A stretch of DNA of 64,000 nucleotides from an uncultured bacterium (GTDB taxonomy: Bacteria; Verrucomicrobiota; Kiritimatiellia; RFP12; UBA1067), in NCBI GenBank assembly GCA_902799385.1, contig CADCAK010000020.1, positions 33,771-97,770 of the forward strand. The letters run 5' to 3'. The notes below the pieces were generated by a model. It did no database searches. It was not told the DNA's origin and saw only the letters and a list, made by a program, of their open reading frames with translations. Shown piece after piece: positions 24,430 to 42,751 of this stretch. How positions within the stretch are numbered: position 1 is the stretch's first letter; each line of letters starts with the position of its first letter. The position numbers were made by a program, and so were the translations under genes.

Positions 24430-24802
24430 TCCCTCCCTTCGCACTTTTCTCATTTATTCCCCAACCAACAAGCTCCAAATGCCTGCAAGCATCACACCCT
24501 GTTGCCACTGCCAATGCCTCTGGTGTCATCTTAAAGTCCCTTAGCACTCCATTTCTAAACTTAAGCTCTACATCGACATGGGCACCTTCAACTTCCCGAA
24601 GCATTTTGCGCAGTTTTTCATAATCTTCAAAAGAAGCTTCTCCTCCGGGATACGAATACATTGCGGAAAAGAACCTGCACGGTCCATCTGGATTCCCGAC
24701 AGCCTCAAAGTCGACTGTCATGCTATCTGCAGCAGACGGATCGTCCAAGAACGACAATGGCATTTTAACTGTCTTCCACTCAATCTTACCAAATGGCCAC
24801 AT
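24422..24802 (-). CDS. hypothetical cytoplasmic protein (126 aa)
   Basis: ORF only. Coupled to the downstream membrane protein. Confidence 0.45.
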   Translation of the reverse strand: MWPFGKIEWKTVKMPLSFLDDPSAADSMTVDFEAVGNPDGPCRFFSAMYSYPGGEASFEDYEKLRKMLREVEGAHVDVELKFRNGVLRDFKMTPEALAVATGCDACRHLELVGWGINEKSAKGGNV

Positions 24803-34934: not shown

Positions 34935-36589
34935 AGACGAAGAAACTAATAAAGGCGCTTGTCGCCACCGCCATGCTCGCATGCGTCACCGCCGCGTTCT
35001 TTGGCTGTGACACCGACCTCGCCTGCCGCATCCAGCCCGCCGCGACAATCTGGTTCCTCGTCGTCCTGCTGCTGACGCCGATCGCAGGGCGGCTCTTCTG
35101 CGAGTGTTTCTGCCCGCTTGGGATAGTCCAGTCGATAGTCAACTGGATCTTCCATCCAAAGAGGAAGGTGCGCCGCATCTGCACGCGGCTTCCGGAGTCG
35201 CATGCGCAGCAGAAGGTCCGCTGGACCGTCCTCGCCGTGTCGGTCGTGCTGGTCGCGACGGGATTCGGCGCAATCGGCTGGCTTCTGACGCCCTATTCGA
35301 TCTACGGAAAGGCGCTGACGCTCTTTGCGCCCGGCGTCGCCATCTTCGTGGCTGTCGTAGTTCTCGCGGCCTTCGGCAAGGGACGCCTCTGGTGCAACTG
35401 GATATGCCCGGTCGGAACGCTTTTCAATATCCTTTCAAAGAAAAGCGTGTGCGCCCACAAGATAGGCCCCGGCTGCGCGAACTGCAAGGCGTGTTTTGAG
35501 AATGGGGAACGGAACGGACGACCGAACCACACAACCTCCGAACCACACAACCACACAACCAGTCTCTCCCGCCGCGAGGCGCTCAAGGGCGTCGCGGTTC
35601 TCGCCGCGACGGAGGCCGTCGACAAGACGACTGACGGCGGCTACGCTCCCGTATCGCTCCCCGGCGTTCCCGAGCGCCCTGCGGCCGTCCTGCCGCCAGG
35701 GGCCGTAGATCGCAAGGTCTTCAACGTGAAGTGCGTCGCCTGCGGGCTTTGCATCACGAACTGCAAGGGCAACTGCCTCTCGGCTTCTACGAACCTCAAG
35801 CGCTTCGGCCAGCCCGAGATGGACTTTAGGCGCGGCTACTGTCTCCTTGGCTGCAACTACTCCTGCGGCCATGTCTGCCCGACCGGGGCTATCCACTGGT
35901 TTCCGCGCCTCGCGCGGAAGAACGTCCACATGGGACACGCGATATGGAAGAAGGACCTCTGCATCCGCGCTACCGACGGCGTCGAGTGCACGGCATGTTC
36001 GCGCAAATGCCCCGTCGGCGCAATACACATCGTCGAGGGCTTCCCGGTGGTGGACAAGGCGGCATGCATCGGCTGCGGCGCATGCGAGCATGTCTGCCCC
36101 GCGCGTCCGATGCCGGCGATTTTCGTCAAGGGCTTCGAGCGGCAGCGGCTCGTCTGGCCGATTGACGAAGGTGGGCTTCTCGCGGAGATGAAGACGCTCG
36201 TCATGAGCGGCGTCTCATGCGTCGCGGCAAAAGACGGCGTGATAGTGGCCCAGGAAAAAGGCCGCGGGATCATGCCGATAATGAAGCTTCTTTCCGACGG
36301 AAAGCTCGCACATGCGCTTGTCGTGGACAAGGTGGTAGGCCGCGCGGCGGCGGCAATCTGCATCGTCGGCAAGGCAAAAAAGGTCCATGCCATGATGATG
36401 AGCGTCGAGGCGGCTTCGCTTCTCAAGGCGCACGGGGTCGAGGCGAGCGCAGACAAGACCGTCCCGAAGATCCTTAACCGCGACCTAACGGACGGTTGCC
36501 CGATGGAGCATACGGTCGATGGCATGGACGACCCCGCAGAGATGGTCAAAGCCCTCAGGGAGCGCATGGAGTCGTTCAGCCGCCGCTGA
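34931..36589 (+). CDS. membrane 4Fe-4S protein (NapH-like CxxxCP repeats) with ferredoxin domains and a DUF1893-like C-terminal domain
   Basis: RLFCECFCPLG, RLWCNWICPVG, CIGCGACEHVCP. The C-terminus resembles the TM1506/DUF1893 family, from memory only. ATGA overlap with the AKR gene. Confidence 0.65.
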   Translation: MKTKKLIKALVATAMLACVTAAFFGCDTDLACRIQPAATIWFLVVLLLTPIAGRLFCECFCPLGIVQSIVNWIFHPKRKVRRICTRLPESHAQQKVRWTVLAVSVVLVATGFGAIGWLLTPYSIYGKALTLFAPGVAIFVAVVVLAAFGKGRLWCNWICPVGTLFNILSKKSVCAHKIGPGCANCKACFENGERNGRPNHTTSEPHNHTTSLSRREALKGVAVLAATEAVDKTTDGGYAPVSLPGVPERPAAVLPPGAVDRKVFNVKCVACGLCITNCKGNCLSASTNLKRFGQPEMDFRRGYCLLGCNYSCGHVCPTGAIHWFPRLARKNVHMGHAIWKKDLCIRATDGVECTACSRKCPVGAIHIVEGFPVVDKAACIGCGACEHVCPARPMPAIFVKGFERQRLVWPIDEGGLLAEMKTLVMSGVSCVAAKDGVIVAQEKGRGIMPIMKLLSDGKLAHALVVDKVVGRAAAAICIVGKAKKVHAMMMSVEAASLLKAHGVEASADKTVPKILNRDLTDGCPMEHTVDGMDDPAEMVKALRERMESFSRR

Positions 36590-36600
36590 ACACCCCGCAA

Positions 36601-36662
36601 GCATACGCAAACCAACAACACCGCGCAAACAGGCGTTTTACAAGGGCTTCGTGGAGTCCCCA
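36601..36662. repeat. about 60-nt repeat CATACGCAA..GCGCAAACAGGCsTTTTACAAsGG (copy 2 of 2; the other is at 24847-24903)
   Basis: On the minus strand it resembles a decayed MKPL..LFARG leader with an in-frame stop. Confidence 0.5.
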
Positions 36663-36727
36663 ACCGTTTTTATCGCCCACTTCGTTGCTTTCCGTCACTT
36701 CTCTCATTTTCAACGGCTTTGGGGCGT

Positions 36728-36757
36728 ATTATAGCGCAACTACCACGCTGAAATCAA
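36728..36757 (-). promoter_or_regulatory. sigma70-type promoter TTGATT-18-TATAAT inside a 54-nt repeat (copy 1, 36726-36779)
   Basis: Minus strand reads TTGATTTCAGCGTGGTAGTTGCGCTATAAT. It points at the 3' end of a convergent gene, and no ORF follows it. Confidence 0.45.
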
Positions 36758-36987
36758 CCACGCGACAAAGTTAAGCGAGTCGAAGCTCCATCGTTCGGCG
36801 GTGGCCGAAGGCTCCTCCTCGGGGAACCCTCGGCGAATACGCCGTATCCCCTCGCTCGGACCTTCGCTCCCCCGCCTCACTTACCGCACCAACTACAGCA
36901 AATTGCCTATCACAGTTACAACGGGCACCGCGGGGACAGACCCCACGAAACCAGCTATTTTATTGGCTTTCATCACCGCACCGCCTT

Positions 36988-37809
36988 TCACGCCACCCTT
37001 TCCGCCGCCTTCGCGAGCCGCCATCCGTGCGTCGCGTAGCCTATCTCTCCCACCTCCCTTGCCGCGACGCTTCGCGACCGGAACCTGTCCCCCAGCGCAA
37101 ATGCCGTCGCAGTCACGAACGCGAGACTTCCGAATATCTTCCCCGCCCCTATCTGCGCCACCCTCCTCATCAGCCTCTCGTCGGGGACAGGCCCCGCGGA
37201 AGTGCCGTCAGACGTGGCGATCCAGCTCCAGGCGTAGTCGGCGGCGTGCTTCACCATCCCCGCACGGACGGGGTTCAGGTAGACGTAGCGCATGCAGAGC
37301 GCACGGTAGCGACCGTCCTCGACCAAGGTCGACTTGAAGCGGCCGTCCCATATCGAGCCGCTGTAGTCGTGCTCGCGCTTGAACCAGACGTTGAAGAGCT
37401 CCTTGAACGTCTTTATGAACTCGCTTACGTCGTTCATCCGCGCACGAAGGCGATCCTGCGCCTCGGCAACTGCGGAATCCATGCCGATGTCGCGAAGCTC
37501 CTTCCAGTGCTCGGCGAGTTCGGCTGCCGCTCGCTCGCCCTTCAGCGCCGCGACACGGCGGAGTAACTCGTCCTCGGTCAGCTCCTCCCCGCCATGCACC
37601 ACCTTGCAGACTATGTGGAAGTGGTTATCCATCGCGACATACGCCTCGAGCTCCACTCCAGAGAACGCCGCCGCGCGCTTCAGTGCATTCACGAGCTGCG
37701 TCTTGATCCTCCCCTTCACGAACAGGAAACGCCTGTCGTTCGTGCGCGACATGAGGTGGTATCGCGCGGTTCCGTTGTTCGATTTCTTGATCCTTGCCGG
37801 TCTTGCCAT
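36988..37809 (-). CDS. REP-associated tyrosine transposase-like protein (IS200/HUH Y1 family)
   Basis: HUH motif DNHFHIV and catalytic-Tyr region YVYLNPVRAGMV. Confidence 0.8.
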   Translation of the reverse strand: MARPARIKKSNNGTARYHLMSRTNDRRFLFVKGRIKTQLVNALKRAAAFSGVELEAYVAMDNHFHIVCKVVHGGEELTEDELLRRVAALKGERAAAELAEHWKELRDIGMDSAVAEAQDRLRARMNDVSEFIKTFKELFNVWFKREHDYSGSIWDGRFKSTLVEDGRYRALCMRYVYLNPVRAGMVKHAADYAWSWIATSDGTSAGPVPDERLMRRVAQIGAGKIFGSLAFVTATAFALGDRFRSRSVAAREVGEIGYATHGWRLAKAAERVA

Positions 37810-37850
37810 TTGTAGTCCTTTCTGCCGACGCTTCCTGCATCGACAGAAAC

Positions 37851-37859
37851 ATCATACCA
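37851..37859 (-). promoter_or_regulatory. extended -10 element TGGTATGAT
   Basis: Lies 42 nt upstream of ATG 37809. Confidence 0.45.
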
Positions 37860-37898
37860 CATTTCGGCGAAAGAAAAATGAACCGAATATGAATTCGT

Positions 37899-40436
37899 TT
37901 AGGGGGTCGCCGCCCGGCGGAAAGACGGCAAGGAGGCTAAAATGGGAGCCGTGGCAGGGCCGATGTCAGGAAAGTACTGAAAAATCTGGCTTTCGTGGGG
38001 TCTGTCCCCGCCGATCTGTCCCCGGTTGTGTATGCCTTCTATCTGAACATGAAACGGTATTCTTTCTAACATTTTCTCGGCTTTTTCAAGATCTCCCTTT
38101 CGTGTCTCGTCCATCGCCACATTGTTTCGCTTAGCAACAGCTTTCAAAAGCCCCATATAGTCTCCACTCTCATGCAACTGGCGCAACTCTTCCCAATCTC
38201 GCTCTGTAATAACAATGGAGTGTATGTACGGGATTAGTGCCTTTTGTACTATAAGATGGTCTGCGATATCGAACGACAAAGGCAATGTTTGAATTTTCTT
38301 AAATATCTCGCTTGTATATTTATCCAACTCTTGCCTTTCCGCTTCCAACTTTAGTTTTAACTCAGCCTGACGCTTCCGTTCTGTCTCTTCAGTTTTCAAT
38401 TTCAATTCTTGCTGTTCACGCTCTAAGTCCGCTTGCCGTTCTCGCTTGGCCTTTTCTATGGCTGCTGGGTCACGAAGTGAAAAGAAGTTTGATGAAATCA
38501 ATGGGTTAAACTTTTTATTTATCTCCAGCATGCGCAAATTATGATCTTCCAATGATATTTTTCTCTCCTGATATGCGTTATCGATTTCTTCCGCCTCCTC
38601 ACCAAGTCGTCGCATTTGTTCATGAGATTCACTTAATCCCTGATAAACATCGTGATTACTTTCAAAATAAATTTTTTGCTTCAAACCATAAAAAACGTCA
38701 TAATCAATATCTCCTTCCTTGTGGTTTATATTAAGCACCGTTGCCAACTTATTTAATGCTTCCCATTTTCCTATTAAGATTGTTTCATCCGCAAAAGCGA
38801 CATGACTCAATCCCCAATCCATAAATAACGCCTCAAATGGCGTAAAGCTTTCAAAAATCTTTATCCTTGATAGATTATACTTTTTGATAGTGCGATCACT
38901 CATATCAAAGCCACTATACTTCAGATTCCATTCTCGACAGTTGTTAATTGTAATTGCGCCGCATCTTACTTCATTCGGTATCTGCAATTCAATGTTAGCA
39001 CTAAAATTCTTCTTCTTGAGCCCAAGAAATAACTGCGATATTTCCGAAAGCTCAGGATAGTCTTTATATCGATTAGTCAGCGTGCCATTATTAGCAAGTA
39101 TATCATAACTGACATTCAACGCACCAAGCCAATCTTTTGCCGCACATTTCTTGCGAAGCTCATTCCATGCAAAGTGCTTTACCTCTATCTTAATCTGATC
39201 GGCATACGGCGCGACTGCTTTATCTACCATAATTCGCTTTGAAATATCAAACTCAAGCGAGGAGAATAGTTTAGCTGCAAACTCCTTTTTAAATGCCTCT
39301 TGATTTTCTTTGCGCGTACGATAATCATCTTCTTTAGCTTTCTCGGTTCTGGATTTCCATACGGTGGCATCTGCCTCACTCAACATGGCAAATACATCAA
39401 CTGTATTGTGCAACCCAGACTTAGAGGTGTATGACGCTTGGGCACCAGTCGCTTTTACGACTCCCCACGGCGGATTTTCTCCTGCCCGTAGATTTCGTGT
39501 ACTCTGCATTTTTATGAACACAGGTGTCCATGCGCTTCTTGGATTATCCGCAACAATGTTTTTAGTTGGCCACACAAGAATGCCATCAGAAAAGACTTGC
39601 AATATCCGTAAGAAGTAAACTTCCCCCATCTCATAGAATTCACCCGCAGTAGGCAAGCATAGATCATGGTATATGACAAAGTCGGCTACAGTAAGACGTG
39701 CGTGTTTCTCGGAAAAACCCCTCTCCATGTCTTCCGCATAGCGTATGAGCTTATATATGTCTTCCTCCTCTAAAGCTACATGCTGCGCATTAGATACTTT
39801 CGACTCCACGAATTCGAGCTTTGCGGGTTTCTGGTTGAAAAGCAAAGTGAAAAATGACGATATAGCCACTGCAGCAATCGCAGCCAACACATTCCCCTTG
39901 ATTCCGATTCTCTTTAAAGTATCACCTATCGCTACTGCTTTACCTGTTTGCGTTGCTAAGGTGTTCCTTCGCCACAATATGATTCCAAGGTAACAAAGCC
40001 CAACCGATACTATAGCAACAAACGGATTCTTAAACATTACCGCCAACAAAATGGAGCCAACCATTAGAACATTGGGCATATATCCACGAAAAACTGCATA
40101 GTCGATCAACTTGATCAAGCCTGCTCGTCTCTCTTGGCACTTACCCTGTGAAACTGCTAGTTTTGGCGACAAATTGCAATACTTGATCAGCAGTTTCCAC
40201 TTGCGAACAAAAAACTTGGCGCACTCTTCCAAAAATGATGTAATTTTCCGTTGCATGCTTTCTGACCGCGCATCAGAAATAGAACACGAGTTTTGCTGCG
40301 AGTCGGGGCTCGACGATTCTGACTCTCCTTTGTAGGAGAATTTGGACTCGCAGTACGGACATAGCAGATGCTGCCCGATAACGGGCGAAATCTCGCATTC
40401 GCAACATTCACCACAAACAGGACATTCTATTTGCAC
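37899..40436 (-). CDS. 845-aa zinc-ribbon membrane protein of unknown function (AT-rich gene)
   Basis: GTG start with SD AGGAGA. CPVCGECCECEISPVIGQHLLCPYC ribbon, then TM cluster at about aa 120-210, a coiled-coil KRERQADLEREQQELKLKTEE, and an internally duplicated ~55-aa segment. The last ~40 codons lie in GC-rich REP/IR sequence. Confidence 0.7.
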   Translation of the reverse strand: MQIECPVCGECCECEISPVIGQHLLCPYCESKFSYKGESESSSPDSQQNSCSISDARSESMQRKITSFLEECAKFFVRKWKLLIKYCNLSPKLAVSQGKCQERRAGLIKLIDYAVFRGYMPNVLMVGSILLAVMFKNPFVAIVSVGLCYLGIILWRRNTLATQTGKAVAIGDTLKRIGIKGNVLAAIAAVAISSFFTLLFNQKPAKLEFVESKVSNAQHVALEEEDIYKLIRYAEDMERGFSEKHARLTVADFVIYHDLCLPTAGEFYEMGEVYFLRILQVFSDGILVWPTKNIVADNPRSAWTPVFIKMQSTRNLRAGENPPWGVVKATGAQASYTSKSGLHNTVDVFAMLSEADATVWKSRTEKAKEDDYRTRKENQEAFKKEFAAKLFSSLEFDISKRIMVDKAVAPYADQIKIEVKHFAWNELRKKCAAKDWLGALNVSYDILANNGTLTNRYKDYPELSEISQLFLGLKKKNFSANIELQIPNEVRCGAITINNCREWNLKYSGFDMSDRTIKKYNLSRIKIFESFTPFEALFMDWGLSHVAFADETILIGKWEALNKLATVLNINHKEGDIDYDVFYGLKQKIYFESNHDVYQGLSESHEQMRRLGEEAEEIDNAYQERKISLEDHNLRMLEINKKFNPLISSNFFSLRDPAAIEKAKRERQADLEREQQELKLKTEETERKRQAELKLKLEAERQELDKYTSEIFKKIQTLPLSFDIADHLIVQKALIPYIHSIVITERDWEELRQLHESGDYMGLLKAVAKRNNVAMDETRKGDLEKAEKMLERIPFHVQIEGIHNRGQIGGDRPHESQIFQYFPDIGPATAPILASLPSFRRAATP

Positions 40437-40479
40437 AGATCGTCTCCTACGTATTATGAATGCGTATTTAGCAATTATT

Positions 40480-40914
40480 CTACTTTGCAGATCCCTTATG
40501 TTCCGATGTAGATTCTACTGCCCGCTTGTGACTTTTTAGAAAAATCGCAAACGCCCACAGCCAAGCAATATGGACGACCACAGCAAAAAAACATAGAAAA
40601 TATAAAGCCCTCAAACCACCCTCTCGAAGCCAACCTGGATTATTCTTTGCACCAAACATACACAGTGCGATTATTAAGTATATACAAATCCTAATAAGCG
40701 TTGTGACAACAAGCCAATCGCTACTGTTCCATGTTTTTATTGGCTTTTTCGACGGTTCGTCTAACATCTGCGACAATTCGTTGGATATTGTCGGCCTCAA
40801 CCTAGTAACCGTAAATGTTGTATGACAACCTTGACACTCAACTTCAGTCCCCTCATACTTTGCATCAAGTTCATAAATATTCCTACAAGTAGGGCACTGC
40901 GTTCGTATTTGCAT
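40480..40914 (-). CDS. 144-aa zinc-ribbon (MJ0042-like CPxC...CxxC) protein with 3 TM helices
   Basis: ORF trimmed to MQIRTQCPTCRNIYELDAKYEGTEVECQGCHTTF with SD AGGAG. Confidence 0.65.
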   Translation of the reverse strand: MQIRTQCPTCRNIYELDAKYEGTEVECQGCHTTFTVTRLRPTISNELSQMLDEPSKKPIKTWNSSDWLVVTTLIRICIYLIIALCMFGAKNNPGWLREGGLRALYFLCFFAVVVHIAWLWAFAIFLKSHKRAVESTSEHKGSAK

Positions 40915-41044
40915 AATCACTCCTAATGGACAATATTTTAGATTGCGCAAAATTTCATCGCGGACACCATGTCTCATACATGAAAAAGGGGCGCATTCCT
41001 TCCCATGCACTCTGACGAAGCCCTAGCACAGGCCATTGCGAATA

Positions 41045-41223
41045 CATGAAGAAAGAACGCGCCCAATTGGGCGCATCATTCACTTACATGTCGTTCGCAA
41101 TTTGAAATGGTGCTAGTATTTCGTCAGAACGACGTGTAGCGTTGATGCTACATTGTTAAGCGCCCGGCGGGTTTCCCGTTTTCCGGACTATGACCCCGCG
41201 TCGCGCATACCGCCTCGCGGGAT
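41045..41223 (-). ncRNA. candidate ~175-nt structured leader or sRNA between the repeat-borne promoter and a terminator-like hairpin
   Basis: Hairpins on the minus strand: CCCGCG..CGCGGG, CCGGaaaaCGGGaaaCCCGCCGG, GTAGCatcaacGCTAC, then GCGCCCAATTGGGCGC followed by GTTCTTTCTTC. Confidence 0.3.
41059..41074 (-). terminator. perfect 16-nt palindrome GCGCCCAATTGGGCGC followed by a T-rich tract on the minus strand
   Basis: Seen directly. It sits upstream of gene 40480..40914, so it could be an attenuator rather than a terminator. Confidence 0.35.
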
Positions 41224-41229
41224 GTGGGT

Positions 41230-41259
41230 ATTATAGCGAAACTTCCGCGCTGAAATCAA
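41230..41259 (-). promoter_or_regulatory. sigma70-type promoter TTGATT-18-TATAAT inside repeat copy 2 (41228-41328)
   Basis: Minus strand reads TTGATTTCAGCGCGGAAGTTTCGCTATAAT. It points into the AT-rich two-gene insert. Confidence 0.5.
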
Positions 41260-41809
41260 GCGCGGCAAAAATAAGATTACGGTGCGGACGAAATCGCGGC
41301 ACCTTTGCCGCGGACAAGGTTAAGCGAGCTGACGGGACGTCGGCGAGCGCAAAAGCTACGAAGAAAAACGCGCCTTATGGAAGGTGAGGCAAGGGACGAG
41401 GGGGCGAGTGCCGAACTGAGCGACATGCAACGACGCGGTTCGTCGGATGCGCGGTGAGACACGTCGCAAGGCGAGGAGGCAGCATGCGGGAGAGGCAATC
41501 AATATTCCCGAGCAAAGCGAGGACACCATGGCGTAGGCGAGCGGAGGCGAAGGTCGCATAAGAGGAGCGGTCTTGTCTCGCAGGCGTAAGAGGCGCTTGC
41601 GTACCCAACCAGTGATAGACGCCAAGGCACGGCAGGCTAAACTCGGCTCTTTGTCTGATGTGCGGGAGCCGTCGCGATGGCAAGACCCGACGGGTTAGGC
41701 GAGCCTTCGCGCAGCTCGCCGGAGCACACCTCGACCGTGACCGCACATTGGAAGGCAAACCAGCACCAAGTACAAACCACAACACCAAGCACGGCATGCC
41801 GCCGCAGGC

Positions 41810-42751
41810 TCAGAACTTGCGGTTGCGAGAAAGGATGACGAAGAGCGCGCCGATGAGAATGGCGAGGACGCACGAAACGCCCATCACTATCGCAAACGCG
41901 TTGCCATGCTGCTGGAACGGCAGTGGAATGTTCATGCCGTAGATCGACGCGATGAGCGTCGGCACGGCGAGAAGAATCGTCGCCGCCGTCAAGTACTTCA
42001 TCACGTTGTTCAAATTGTTGTTGATCAGCGACGCAAAAGTATCGAGAGTGCCGTTCAAGATGTTCGCATGTATCGTCGCCGTCTCGAGCGCCTGCTGATA
42101 CTCAACCATAGCATCCTCGAGCTGGTCGCGGTCGTCTTCGCTCATCACGAGCTGGCGCGCCGTGTTCGCGCGGGCAAGCGCAATCGTGTCGGCTTTGAGC
42201 GACGTCGTGAAGTAGACGAGCGACTTCTCAATCGTAAGGAGCTTCAACAAGACCTCGTTCGAGATCGACTCGTGGAGCTCGTCCTCTAACGCAAGCGAGC
42301 GTTGGTGGATGTCGTGAAGATAGCGCAGGAACAGGACGCCACCGTGCCAGAGAAGGCGGAACGCGAAGCGATAGCGGTCGGACGGCGGGCAGACGCGGCG
42401 GATCTGGTCGAGGAACGCCGTCGTGACAGGAGTCTGCGCGCTGCAGACGGTGATGACGGTCTCACGGACGAGGATGATGCCGAGCGGGACCGTGCGGTAG
42501 GGAACCACCTCGTCGTCCTCGACCGCGTACGGAACGTGGACGATGAGAATGGACGAGTCGTCGTCGTAGTCGAAACGCGGGCGTTCGTCTGCGTCGAGCG
42601 GGTCGGTCAAGAAGTCGCGCGGAACGCCGGTGTGCGTCAGGACGCGCTCAAGCTCGGTCGTCGTCGGCTCGACGAGGTTGATCCAGCAGGACGGCGCAAA
42701 GTCCGAAGTCTCCTTGAGACCCCCGTTCTCCCAGCGGTAGATCGCCATCAT
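41810..42751 (-). CDS. corA: CorA-family magnesium/cobalt transporter
   Basis: YGMNIPLPF motif plus two C-terminal TM helices. Confidence 0.85.
   Translation of the reverse strand: MMAIYRWENGGLKETSDFAPSCWINLVEPTTTELERVLTHTGVPRDFLTDPLDADERPRFDYDDDSSILIVHVPYAVEDDEVVPYRTVPLGIILVRETVITVCSAQTPVTTAFLDQIRRVCPPSDRYRFAFRLLWHGGVLFLRYLHDIHQRSLALEDELHESISNEVLLKLLTIEKSLVYFTTSLKADTIALARANTARQLVMSEDDRDQLEDAMVEYQQALETATIHANILNGTLDTFASLINNNLNNVMKYLTAATILLAVPTLIASIYGMNIPLPFQQHGNAFAIVMGVSCVLAILIGALFVILSRNRKF

Follow-up and report, generated by a model that had tools for sequence, protein, structure and literature searches.

An AT-rich two-gene block beside a RAYT-like unit in an uncultured Kiritimatiellia bacterium: a probable remodelled copy of a rare secreted-protein gene

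The window analysed here is a 64,000-nt stretch of DNA from an uncultured bacterium of the Kiritimatiellia (GenBank assembly GCA_902799385.1, contig CADCAK010000020.1, positions 33,771 to 97,770), and the element in question is a low-GC block of 3.1 kb (38037-41175) situated between fdx, a ferredoxin-like gene, and corA, next to a transposase unit that resembles REP-associated tyrosine transposases (RAYTs; REP, repetitive extragenic palindromic). The GC content is 0.36-0.46 between about 38030 and 41160 and 0.60-0.67 in the flanks, and GC at third codon positions (GC3) is 0.38 in the shorter gene of the block, p144, and 0.40 in the core and 0.48 in the N-terminus of the longer gene, p845, compared with 0.80-0.86 in the five neighbours AKR, fdx, RAYT, corA and pheS. 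An earlier note, made from the sequence alone, had described a compositionally foreign insert with two co-directional genes of 144 and 845 aa, neither of which belongs to a recognisable family beyond its zinc ribbon. This description is supported by the windowed GC and GC3 values, by public gene calls, which give the same coordinates, and by domain-library scans. Its further interpretation as a recently acquired effector pair mostly did not hold, and the relatives of p845 point to a resident gene that was altered at both ends.

The AT-rich block and the family of the p845 core

The open reading frames (ORFs) of p144 and p845 are identical in four independent assemblies, and the zinc ribbons that had been noted are visible in both translations (CPTC..CQGC in p144 and CPVC..CPYC in p845). 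Because both proteins share the start MQI..CPxC and AGGAG ribosome-binding sites precede both starts at the right distance, p144 and p845 are regarded as real genes. The window bacterium is of gut or rumen origin: the closest relatives of the neighbouring fdx, at 86-93% identity, are found in rumen and gut metagenome-assembled genomes, and the labels of several of these read Kiritimatiellae, Kiritimatiellia, Lentisphaerae or Verrucomicrobia.

A search of 5.8 billion proteins retrieves six clusters of p845 homologues with 55-71% identity, all of which cover only residues 220-800. A profile search of 1.84 billion representatives adds only about 17 more distant members; the representatives with E <= 1e-3 number 19, and close members reach E = 0. 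Proteins of this family normally open with a Sec-type signal peptide and a barrel resembling the oligonucleotide/oligosaccharide-binding (OB) fold. Two rounds of a coiled coil followed by a helical module come next, separated by a variable region, and the C-terminal part holds a beta-sandwich, then a helical domain and, at the very end, a DnaJ-type CXXCXGXG zinc finger. Close relatives start with a short hydrophobic signal peptide (MKMLILIMMPIVALVAQ followed by GE...) where p845 has 219 unrelated residues, and they extend for about 300 residues past the motif FHVQxE, to the zinc finger (Pfam PF00684), where p845 has 45 unrelated residues. Most of the distant members have the same signal peptide and C-terminal zinc finger, and P0014 has a C-terminal segment in common with P0004-P0006 (proteins and comparison loci are referred to by P and L numbers, respectively). 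Compared with this signal-peptide/DnaJ-zinc-finger family (P0002-P0017), p845 shares the homologous core, the low GC content and upstream landmark elements, whereas the signal peptide, the beta-sandwich, the helical domain, the CXXCXGXG finger and a downstream operon for 158-aa and 863-aa proteins are absent. The family itself is absent from Pfam, NCBIfam, PHROGs and PADLOC, none of which contains a family match for p845.

Two breakpoints delimit the core. At the 5' end, DNA homology to the relatives begins at the signal-peptide cleavage region, and at the 3' end, the similarity to every relative breaks off at residue 800 (nt 38037), which leaves 22 nt to the REP arm of the transposase unit. 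FHVQxE is the first strand of the beta-sandwich in the AlphaFold2 (AF2) model of a full-length homologue, in which the helical domain and the zinc finger follow, and p845 is therefore cut inside a domain. The earlier note had recognised the C-terminus as chimeric, in agreement with the end of homology at residue 800 and with the course of codons 801-845 (GC3 0.71) through the repeat arm; these codons are an accidental read-through into the RAYT unit. Thus, p845 is a double chimera composed of an orphan zinc-ribbon and transmembrane (TM) module, the family core and the REP read-through. Hydropathy analysis reveals hydrophobic segments at residues 123-157 (one or two helices) and 181-200 of the N-terminal module. 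Within the core, the internal duplication of ~55 aa that had been seen in the translation is recovered at residues 394-440 versus 720-764 (38% identity, E = 6e-9) and is conserved across the family, and the suspected coiled coil agrees with long helices predicted by AF2 at residues 603-717.

The low GC content is shared by the relatives. The genes of five close homologues have GC values of 0.43-0.45 and GC3 values of 0.43-0.46, next to host neighbours with a GC3 of 0.70-0.81, and the distant member in L060 has a GC3 of 0.56. Between the window copy and those in L005, L057 and L059, synonymous divergence (dS) is 1.4-1.7, i.e. saturated, and the ratio of nonsynonymous to synonymous divergence (dN/dS) is about 0.11-0.18, with an overall range of 0.11-0.33 for the p845 core. 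Saturated dS and low dN/dS together indicate that the genes of this family have long been separated under purifying selection without drifting towards host composition. Because the homologues are equally AT-rich in other hosts despite saturated dS, low GC can be taken as a trait of the family and not as proof of a recent arrival in the window genome. The comparison with L058 reveals mosaicism, with a dS of 0.155 for residues 600-800 and 0.73 for residues 220-500. A low-GC donor pool for the family is hypothetical; relatives of the core were not detected in IMG/VR, JGI metagenomes, GenBank phages or PLSDB plasmids. Contigs that carry the family gene are mostly just 2.9-5.9 kb long (among L002-L004 and L058-L061), and L002-L004, short contigs of the window species, end within the GC-rich flanks, in the promoter module or the RAYT unit, which points to repeated flanks or to a locus that differs among co-occurring strains.

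The DNA between the upstream end of the block and the family core (41175-39780), comprising a leader, p144 and the N-terminal module of p845, yields no detectable homologue, although for the N-terminal module the negative evidence is weak: the search with residues 1-219 missed even the parent protein P0001, in which they are contained as an exact match. The whole-protein search likewise gave no relatives covering residues 1-219. Among the 5.8 billion proteins, p144 has no homologue beyond the cluster of its own near-identical copies (99% identity), and no called p144-like gene was found beside the family gene in any of the seven relative loci examined, so p144 and p845 are not a conserved pair. 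Three TM helices had been proposed for p144, but hydropathy indicates two clear segments (67-88 and 103-126). Its CPxC..CxxC spacing is visible in the translation, and it scores 22.3 bits against Pfam Zn_ribbon_4 (cut-off 30.3) and 17.2 (cut-off 29.3) and 12.8 (cut-off 20.9) against the other MJ0042-type ribbon models (PF13717/PF13719/TIGR02098 set), none of which matches p845; a resemblance of both proteins to MJ0042-type ribbons is plausible but unproven. Paralogy between p144 and the p845 N-terminus was considered and rejected, as the similarity is marginal and confined to the ribbon (E = 0.01).

The leader of the block is strongly structured. On the minus strand, 40905-41225 folds with a minimum free energy of -127.9 kcal/mol (z = -6.0 versus shuffled controls) without an Rfam match, and the leader includes a GC hairpin followed by a T-rich tract, a possible attenuator or else the structure that ends the AT-rich segment. 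The whole window has no Rfam match at the gathering threshold, 36400-41900 has none at E <= 1, and tRNA and tmRNA scans of the window were negative. The features of the locus are compiled in Table 1.

Table 1. Features of the AT-rich block and its flanks (positions in the window).
Feature	Position	Strand	Description
Left promoter module	36667..36779	-	TTGATT -35 at 36757-36752; TATAAT -10 at 36733-36728
80-nt GC-rich element	36797..36876	.	Directly downstream of fdx; native flank, not part of the block
RAYT-like unit	36930..38014	-	Inverted REP-like arms 36930-36950 and 37991-38011, each with small palindrome GGGGACAGACCCC
HUH/Y1 transposase coding sequence	36988-37809	-	Pfam Y1_Tnp 33.9 bits (cut-off 23), E = 3.8e-8; motif NHFHIV visible
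p845	37899-40436	-	845 aa; GTG start with AGGAG upstream
p845 read-through tail, codons 801-845	37899..38036	-	Encoded by REP arm and RAYT upstream region (GGDRPHESQIFQYFPDIG...); GC3 0.71
Junction of p845 core and RAYT unit	38015..38036	-	Holds partial extra REP copy (GGGGACAGATC); alignment with L058, L005, L059
p845 core, residues 220-800	38037..39779	-	OB-fold-like beta-barrel, coiled coils, two ~50-aa helical modules, variable middle
p845 N-terminal module, residues 1-219	39780..40436	-	CPVC..CPYC ribbon, linker, 2-3 hydrophobic helices; in place of the family signal peptide
p144	40480-40914	-	144 aa; ATG start with AGGAG upstream; CPTC..CQGC ribbon; two hydrophobic segments; orphan
AT-rich leader of the block	40915..41175	-	Strongly structured; terminator-like hairpin 41077-41056 nested in 19-nt inverted repeat 41011-41029 / 41110-41128
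Right promoter module	41176..41328	-	-35 at 41259-41254; -10 at 41235-41230; conserved 52-nt transcribed start; upstream hairpin region; faces block
Dispersed GC-rich intergenic element	41293..41409	.	Also upstream of the family gene in L057 and downstream, inverted, in L056; 85-87% identity
Conserved 100-nt non-coding element	41578..41677	.	L016 17048-17147 (93% identical), L056 2205-2303 (86%)

Promoter modules on both sides of the block

A TTGATT-18-TATAAT promoter duplicated on both sides of the block was described in the earlier note. The duplication itself exists: 36726-36769 and 41228-41271 are 82% identical over 44 nt, a second part (36764-36779 and 41313-41328) is identical at 15 of 16 positions (94%), with 47 extra nt in the right copy, and a 32-nt core occurs exactly twice in the 64 kb where no occurrence is expected. 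Both copies (module sequence TTGATTTCnGnGnGGnAGTTTCGCTATAAT) are the best sigma-70-like matches on the minus strand. That the repeat brackets an insertion is contradicted by related loci, in which each copy, together with its flanks, has closer counterparts (in L005 or L016) than the other copy.

The left copy (36727-36757 and the next ~60 nt) is 88-89% identical to L005 1553-1649 and L005 1-64, and at both of these sites the module precedes intact genes starting MGDKKSNAKG, which encode a 331-aa protein and a BspA-type leucine-rich repeat (LRR) protein. In the window, it retains the 5' untranslated region (UTR) and the first ~4 codons (GTG GGC GAT AAA, about 36680) of a lost gene, after which degenerate REP-like sequence follows, and with no gene to drive it is directed into the convergent fdx at its 3' end. 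The left copy is the stump of a deleted gene. In L005, positions 1-110 and 1553-1690 represent an identical cassette of promoter, 5' UTR and first ~10 codons (MGDKKSNAKG.SPHLIA) placed before two unrelated genes, and a leader module that is common to different genes could reflect recombinational cassette exchange. The 80-nt element next to the left copy is 91-95% identical to L016 11290-11369 and to copies in L017, L018 and L039, and in several species it likewise follows fdx directly; it has hairpin potential and is kept even where fdx is without its C-terminal TM1506 domain (411 aa versus 552 aa).

The right copy (41229-41259) is part of a segment, 41176 to about 41700, that is colinear with L016 17048-17418, directly before a 158-aa/863-aa operon. 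The orthologous stretch extends about 500 nt upstream and 52 nt downstream of the copy, and L016, another Kiritimatiellia genome, has the right-hand promoter block without the family gene and in a different neighbourhood. The right copy probably transcribes p144 and p845. The family gene lies upstream of the 158-aa/863-aa operon in three loci (L005, L006 and L057) and behind GC-rich intergenic elements in L056, L057 and L059; these elements also flank the window block, and 41274-41298 recurs next to the family gene in L059. Since pieces of the upstream flank recur beside the family gene in these three loci, the window block and its relatives have the same DNA upstream. The window lacks a 158/863 operon, whose former presence behind this copy of the family gene would follow from the arrangement in the relatives. 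The 100-nt element further upstream is better conserved than neighbouring coding DNA in three species and always lies upstream of the family or 158/863 locus; its RNAalifold consensus comprises 35 pairs, five of which show compensatory changes (among three sequences only), and it has no Rfam match. It is a candidate regulatory RNA or protein-binding region.

In 891 kb of sequence (the window and the fetched loci), the promoter module is found outside the window and L001 and L002, which are duplicate contigs of the window species, only at the L005 and L016 sites. It is a specific recurrent promoter and not a duplication generated by insertion, and the alternative raised in the earlier note, that the repeat is an intergenic element unrelated to insertion, largely applies. 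An empty site was sought among 49 related loci, none of which has corA within 10 kb after fdx; conserved order is limited to the AKR-fdx pair. Synteny beyond this pair is not kept even in relatives with an 88-93% identical fdx and no empty site was found, a comparison that is uninformative because gene order around fdx is not conserved.

These observations bear directly on the account of the block as a horizontally acquired two-gene membrane effector cassette that entered between fdx and corA and duplicated a 54-nt promoter-bearing target or attachment sequence. Foreign composition, promoter copies in direct orientation at both ends, a mobile-element gene at one end, two orphan or rare genes and a further accessory region of the window with HipA and AAA_14 genes are all in line with such an event. 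However, a 47-nt indel and an identity of just 82% separate the two copies, both of which, flanks included, have closer relatives at other loci in other species, and the left one carries the first codons of a different gene. Long target duplications are not known from HUH/Y1 (IS200/IS605-type) elements. Moreover, family genes occur without p144, and the long gene is truncated inside a domain. A role in defence, abortive infection or toxicity finds no counterpart in the libraries: PADLOC has no family for either protein at E <= 1, PHROGs has none for p845 and just weak ribbon-only matches for p144, and there are no phage, plasmid or IMG/VR matches for p845. The pairing of the genes as effectors fares no better, as relatives of the long protein occur without a p144-like partner and p144 and the 219 N-terminal residues have no homologues. 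Recent acquisition, finally, is at odds with homologues that are equally AT-rich in other hosts though dS exceeds 1 and with upstream landmarks common to the homologue loci. An inserted effector cassette is thus considered highly unlikely.

The RAYT-like unit and the truncation of p845

The presence of a HUH transposase with REP-like inverted repeats, as proposed in the earlier note, is confirmed. The inverted arms (REP sequence GGCGGGGACAGACCCCACGAAA) are 21 nt long, 100% complementary and each contain GGGG-ACAGA-CCCC. The annotation as a RAYT/REP unit is reasonable; against NCBIfam REP_Tyr_transpos the protein scores 67.1 bits (cut-off 80) in two partial stretches, and an exact look-up of its sequence returned no record. 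Within the window, REP copies are limited to the flanking pair and two partial copies. Metagenome matches to the REP core (GGCGGGGACAGACCCCACG, L062-L090) amount to 29 exact hits, about eight of which are non-coding, and this raw count of the 19-mer is unusable as a copy number because about half of the hits represent the coding motif WQDYVAGTDPTD (AGTDPT). The REP core and this coding motif are the same 19-mer, and the coding matches are found in GC-rich contigs.

The unit occurs in other contexts. Metagenome contig L072 contains the same unit with 93% identity, and the homology covers exactly window 36930-38014, from arm to arm. On one side it is neighboured by an unannotated ORF of 292 aa without a match in the window and on the other by a homologue of window 24432-24729. 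The latter (L072 2479-2776) is 90.6% identical to the window segment, which lies 13 kb from the window's own RAYT. About 20 kb of the window (5700-26500) are of intermediate GC (0.47-0.58) and contain minus-strand accessory genes: four paralogous AAA_14/DUF4143 ATPases, a HipA_C kinase, a Sel1-repeat protein and several ORFs without a Pfam match. This stretch resembles a variable accessory region and harbours the sole toxin- or defence-flavoured genes of the window. The arrangement in L072 links the window's two accessory regions.

A third context is provided by L086, in which the unit is located beside another low-GC gene pair. This 46% GC contig (L086 1-1266) encodes an ORF of 106 aa with a hydrophobic N-terminus and a lipoprotein-like low-GC gene of 207 aa, and represents a second case of low-GC genes abutting the RAYT unit. 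The 106-aa ORF is unrelated to p845 and ends in a similar tail, GGDRPHGTLIFQGFPDIG..., by read-through into the REP; a tblastn match to the stretch corresponding to the p845 tail also lies in L072, upstream of the RAYT there. In L005, two direct REP copies at the 3' end of an LRR gene encode its last residues, ...SAGTKSAGTDPVEPLE. Taken together, these arrangements characterise the RAYT unit as a discrete element that is found in different contexts and repeatedly at gene 3' ends.

REP-associated tyrosine transposases with flanking REP or REPIN sequences have been described (Nunvar 2010; Bertels and Rainey 2011, PMC3116915; Bertels 2017, PMC5581495), and in the literature RAYTs are reported as single-copy and vertically inherited. 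The window unit resembles them in its HUH/Y1 transposase with HFH motif, in its inverted, palindrome-containing flanking repeats, in the recurrence of its repeat in related genomes and in the neighbouring genes that read into the repeat. It differs from them in that its protein carries an insertion and stays below the NCBIfam cut-off (67 versus 80) and in its three contexts in different samples, which argue against immobility and are a better fit to a mobile IS200-like element than to a single-copy vertical RAYT.

A simple insertion of the RAYT unit into an intact gene was considered as the cause of the truncation and rejected, as the missing 3' part of p845 is not located beyond the unit; truncation therefore requires an adjacent deletion or recombination. 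The copy could just as well be a remnant that was disabled recently and whose frame is still open. On the view of a decaying pseudogene, the 845-codon frame would be a non-functional relic without stop codons so far, left after the loss of the signal peptide and the C-terminal third, and p144 would be a spurious or incidental ORF. The truncation falls inside the beta-sandwich and removes the zinc finger that is conserved in most members, the read-through tail is accidental sequence, and the left promoter module nearby is a gene stump too, so that the region underwent deletions. In addition, in the comparison with the nearest relative the segment shared most recently has the highest dN/dS (0.33), and p144 has no homologues. 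Nevertheless, chance would hardly preserve an open frame of 2.5 kb in DNA of 43% GC, four independent samples contain an identical sequence, and p144 begins like p845 with MQI..CPxC, behind a good ribosome-binding site. The replacement N-terminus is in frame, has a well-formed ribbon, hydrophobic helices and its own AGGAG-GTG start, and joins the core exactly where the signal peptide ended, which looks like a functional swap of one export or anchor signal for another. A decaying remnant is for these reasons regarded as an unlikely explanation, but one that deserves serious consideration.

Origin, possible function and meaning of the block

The favoured explanation, held as probable with considerable reserve, is that the block is a resident gene copy that was remodelled and truncated, from a rare and persistently AT-rich family of secreted-protein genes in gut and rumen Kiritimatiellae, and not a fresh two-gene effector island. 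It builds on direct observations: how the block is put together, where its two breakpoints lie, to which family the core belongs, how the promoter module is dispersed, and that the RAYT unit occurs elsewhere. In this scenario, the promoter, 5' UTR and signal peptide of the family gene would have been replaced by about 1.4 kb of orphan AT-rich DNA, which supplies the structured leader, p144 and a zinc-ribbon and TM module that continues in frame into the mature domain. Its 3' third (the last ~300 residues) would have been lost at the REP/RAYT unit, into which translation now runs for 45 codons, and a REP/RAYT-associated rearrangement is the presumed cause of this truncation. The native right promoter copy would drive p144 and p845, and the zinc-ribbon/TM module would anchor the protein in the membrane. 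The two promoter copies are members of a dispersed promoter module, the left one being the stump of another deleted gene. Overall, the window locus looks like the usual locus of the family, remodelled at both ends, and not like a fresh insertion between fdx and corA.

Several points weigh against this explanation. A simple RAYT insertion does not account for the truncation, so that an adjacent deletion or recombination has to be assumed. The lack of homologues of the N-terminal module is weak evidence, as it stems from a search of doubtful sensitivity and from the whole-protein search. The upstream landmarks of the family are dispersed repeats, which weakens the argument for an orthologous locus, and a terminator-like hairpin lies between the promoter and p144, so that use of this promoter is unproven. 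The number of TM helices in p845, and hence its topology, is ambiguous. The AF2 models are mediocre, and the fold matches are weak (E >= 0.005). Lastly, no strain with an intact or an empty locus was found, and the order of events is a reconstruction.

Regarding function, sequence and structure searches as proposed in the earlier note retrieve no housekeeping family and no defence family, and weak OB-like folds only. Two AF2 models were generated from a 16-sequence alignment, one for p845 and one for a full-length relative, with a pLDDT (predicted local distance difference test) of about 64. For p845 (mean pLDDT 64), residues 260-500 and 600-800 reach 75-94, and the model displays a small beta-barrel (about 265-351), long coiled coils and the two copies of the helical module. 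Foldseek comparison of this model with PDB and BFVD gives weak OB-fold resemblances (SSB, TSST-1, CcmE; best E = 0.005), the remainder of the model being without a match. The full-length relative, compared with PDB only, gives nothing significant (a weak beta-sandwich or OB-like resemblance at most), and a sequence-profile search of PDB returned nothing relevant. No catalytic motif, toxin domain or similarity to a defence system was found. Since the relatives have signal peptides, a barrel and coiled-coil architecture and unannotated neighbours, p845 is most likely a membrane-anchored envelope protein with a binding or scaffold role rather than an enzyme or a toxin. The 158-aa product encoded next to the family gene likewise has a hydrophobic, signal-like N-terminus. 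The topology proposed for p845 places the zinc ribbon in the cytoplasm and the core outside it, with a membrane anchor in between; it needs three TM helices, and an extracytoplasmic core would match the secreted location of the relatives.

Such a topology also invites the idea that p144 and p845 work together in transmembrane signalling, as an anti-sigma or sensor type of pair in which cytoplasmic ribbons couple an extracytoplasmic ligand-binding domain, taken from the secreted family, to a cytoplasmic partner. A zinc-binding cytoplasmic N-terminus followed by a TM segment and a large extracytoplasmic domain resembles many single-pass sensors and anti-sigma factors, and the two adjacent genes share an N-terminal ribbon type (E = 0.01, ribbon only). 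Yet the ribbon is of the generic MJ0042-like CPxC..CxxC kind and differs from the HxxxCxxC motif of anti-sigma factors, the neighbourhood contains no gene for a sigma factor, a kinase or a regulator, and no homologous pair was found elsewhere in the p144 search and the weak search with the N-terminal module. A signalling pair is accordingly held to be very improbable.

A broader view would regard the family as a lineage-specific surface or envelope cassette of rumen and gut Kiritimatiellae that is diversified by recombination and kept AT-rich either through an unsampled low-GC mobile pool or through selection. The window copy would then be neofunctionalised, membrane-anchored with a cytoplasmic ribbon and working with p144, while REP/RAYT and promoter/leader modules would shuffle cassettes. 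Taken as a whole, this view is speculative and rather unlikely.

The window thus holds members of known categories, a genomic islet and a RAYT-like unit, together with a protein family that is absent from the libraries. p144 and p845 resemble MJ0042-type ribbon membrane proteins (Pfam Zn_ribbon_4/5, TIGR02098) in a CPxC...CxxC ribbon of ~35 residues at the N-terminal start followed by hydrophobic helices, but the scores remain below the curated cut-offs (22.3 versus 30.3; 12.8 versus 20.9) and the models give a generic fold without a function. With low-GC islets or 'ORFan' cassettes, the block shares an atypical composition and codon use, a narrow distribution, a mobile-element neighbour and assemblies that break at its borders. 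In contrast to a recent one-off acquisition, the window family keeps its low GC across species despite saturated synonymous divergence and resides behind conserved host-type regulatory DNA.

The locus also serves as a caution, as an AT-rich block combined with direct repeats and a transposase mimics a textbook inserted island, whereas the relatives point to a remodelled resident locus and a recurrent promoter module. For researchers working on Kiritimatiellae and the PVC (Planctomycetes-Verrucomicrobia-Chlamydiae) group, promoter and leader modules that are common to unrelated genes are of interest, as is a RAYT-like unit caught in three contexts with neighbouring genes that read into its repeat, although none of these by-products yet opens a long-standing question to direct test. 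The family itself is secreted, carries a DnaJ-type zinc finger and has a GC3 of about 0.4 in genomes of ~0.8 despite saturated synonymous sites, and neither simple amelioration nor a single recent transfer accounts for its persistently low GC content.

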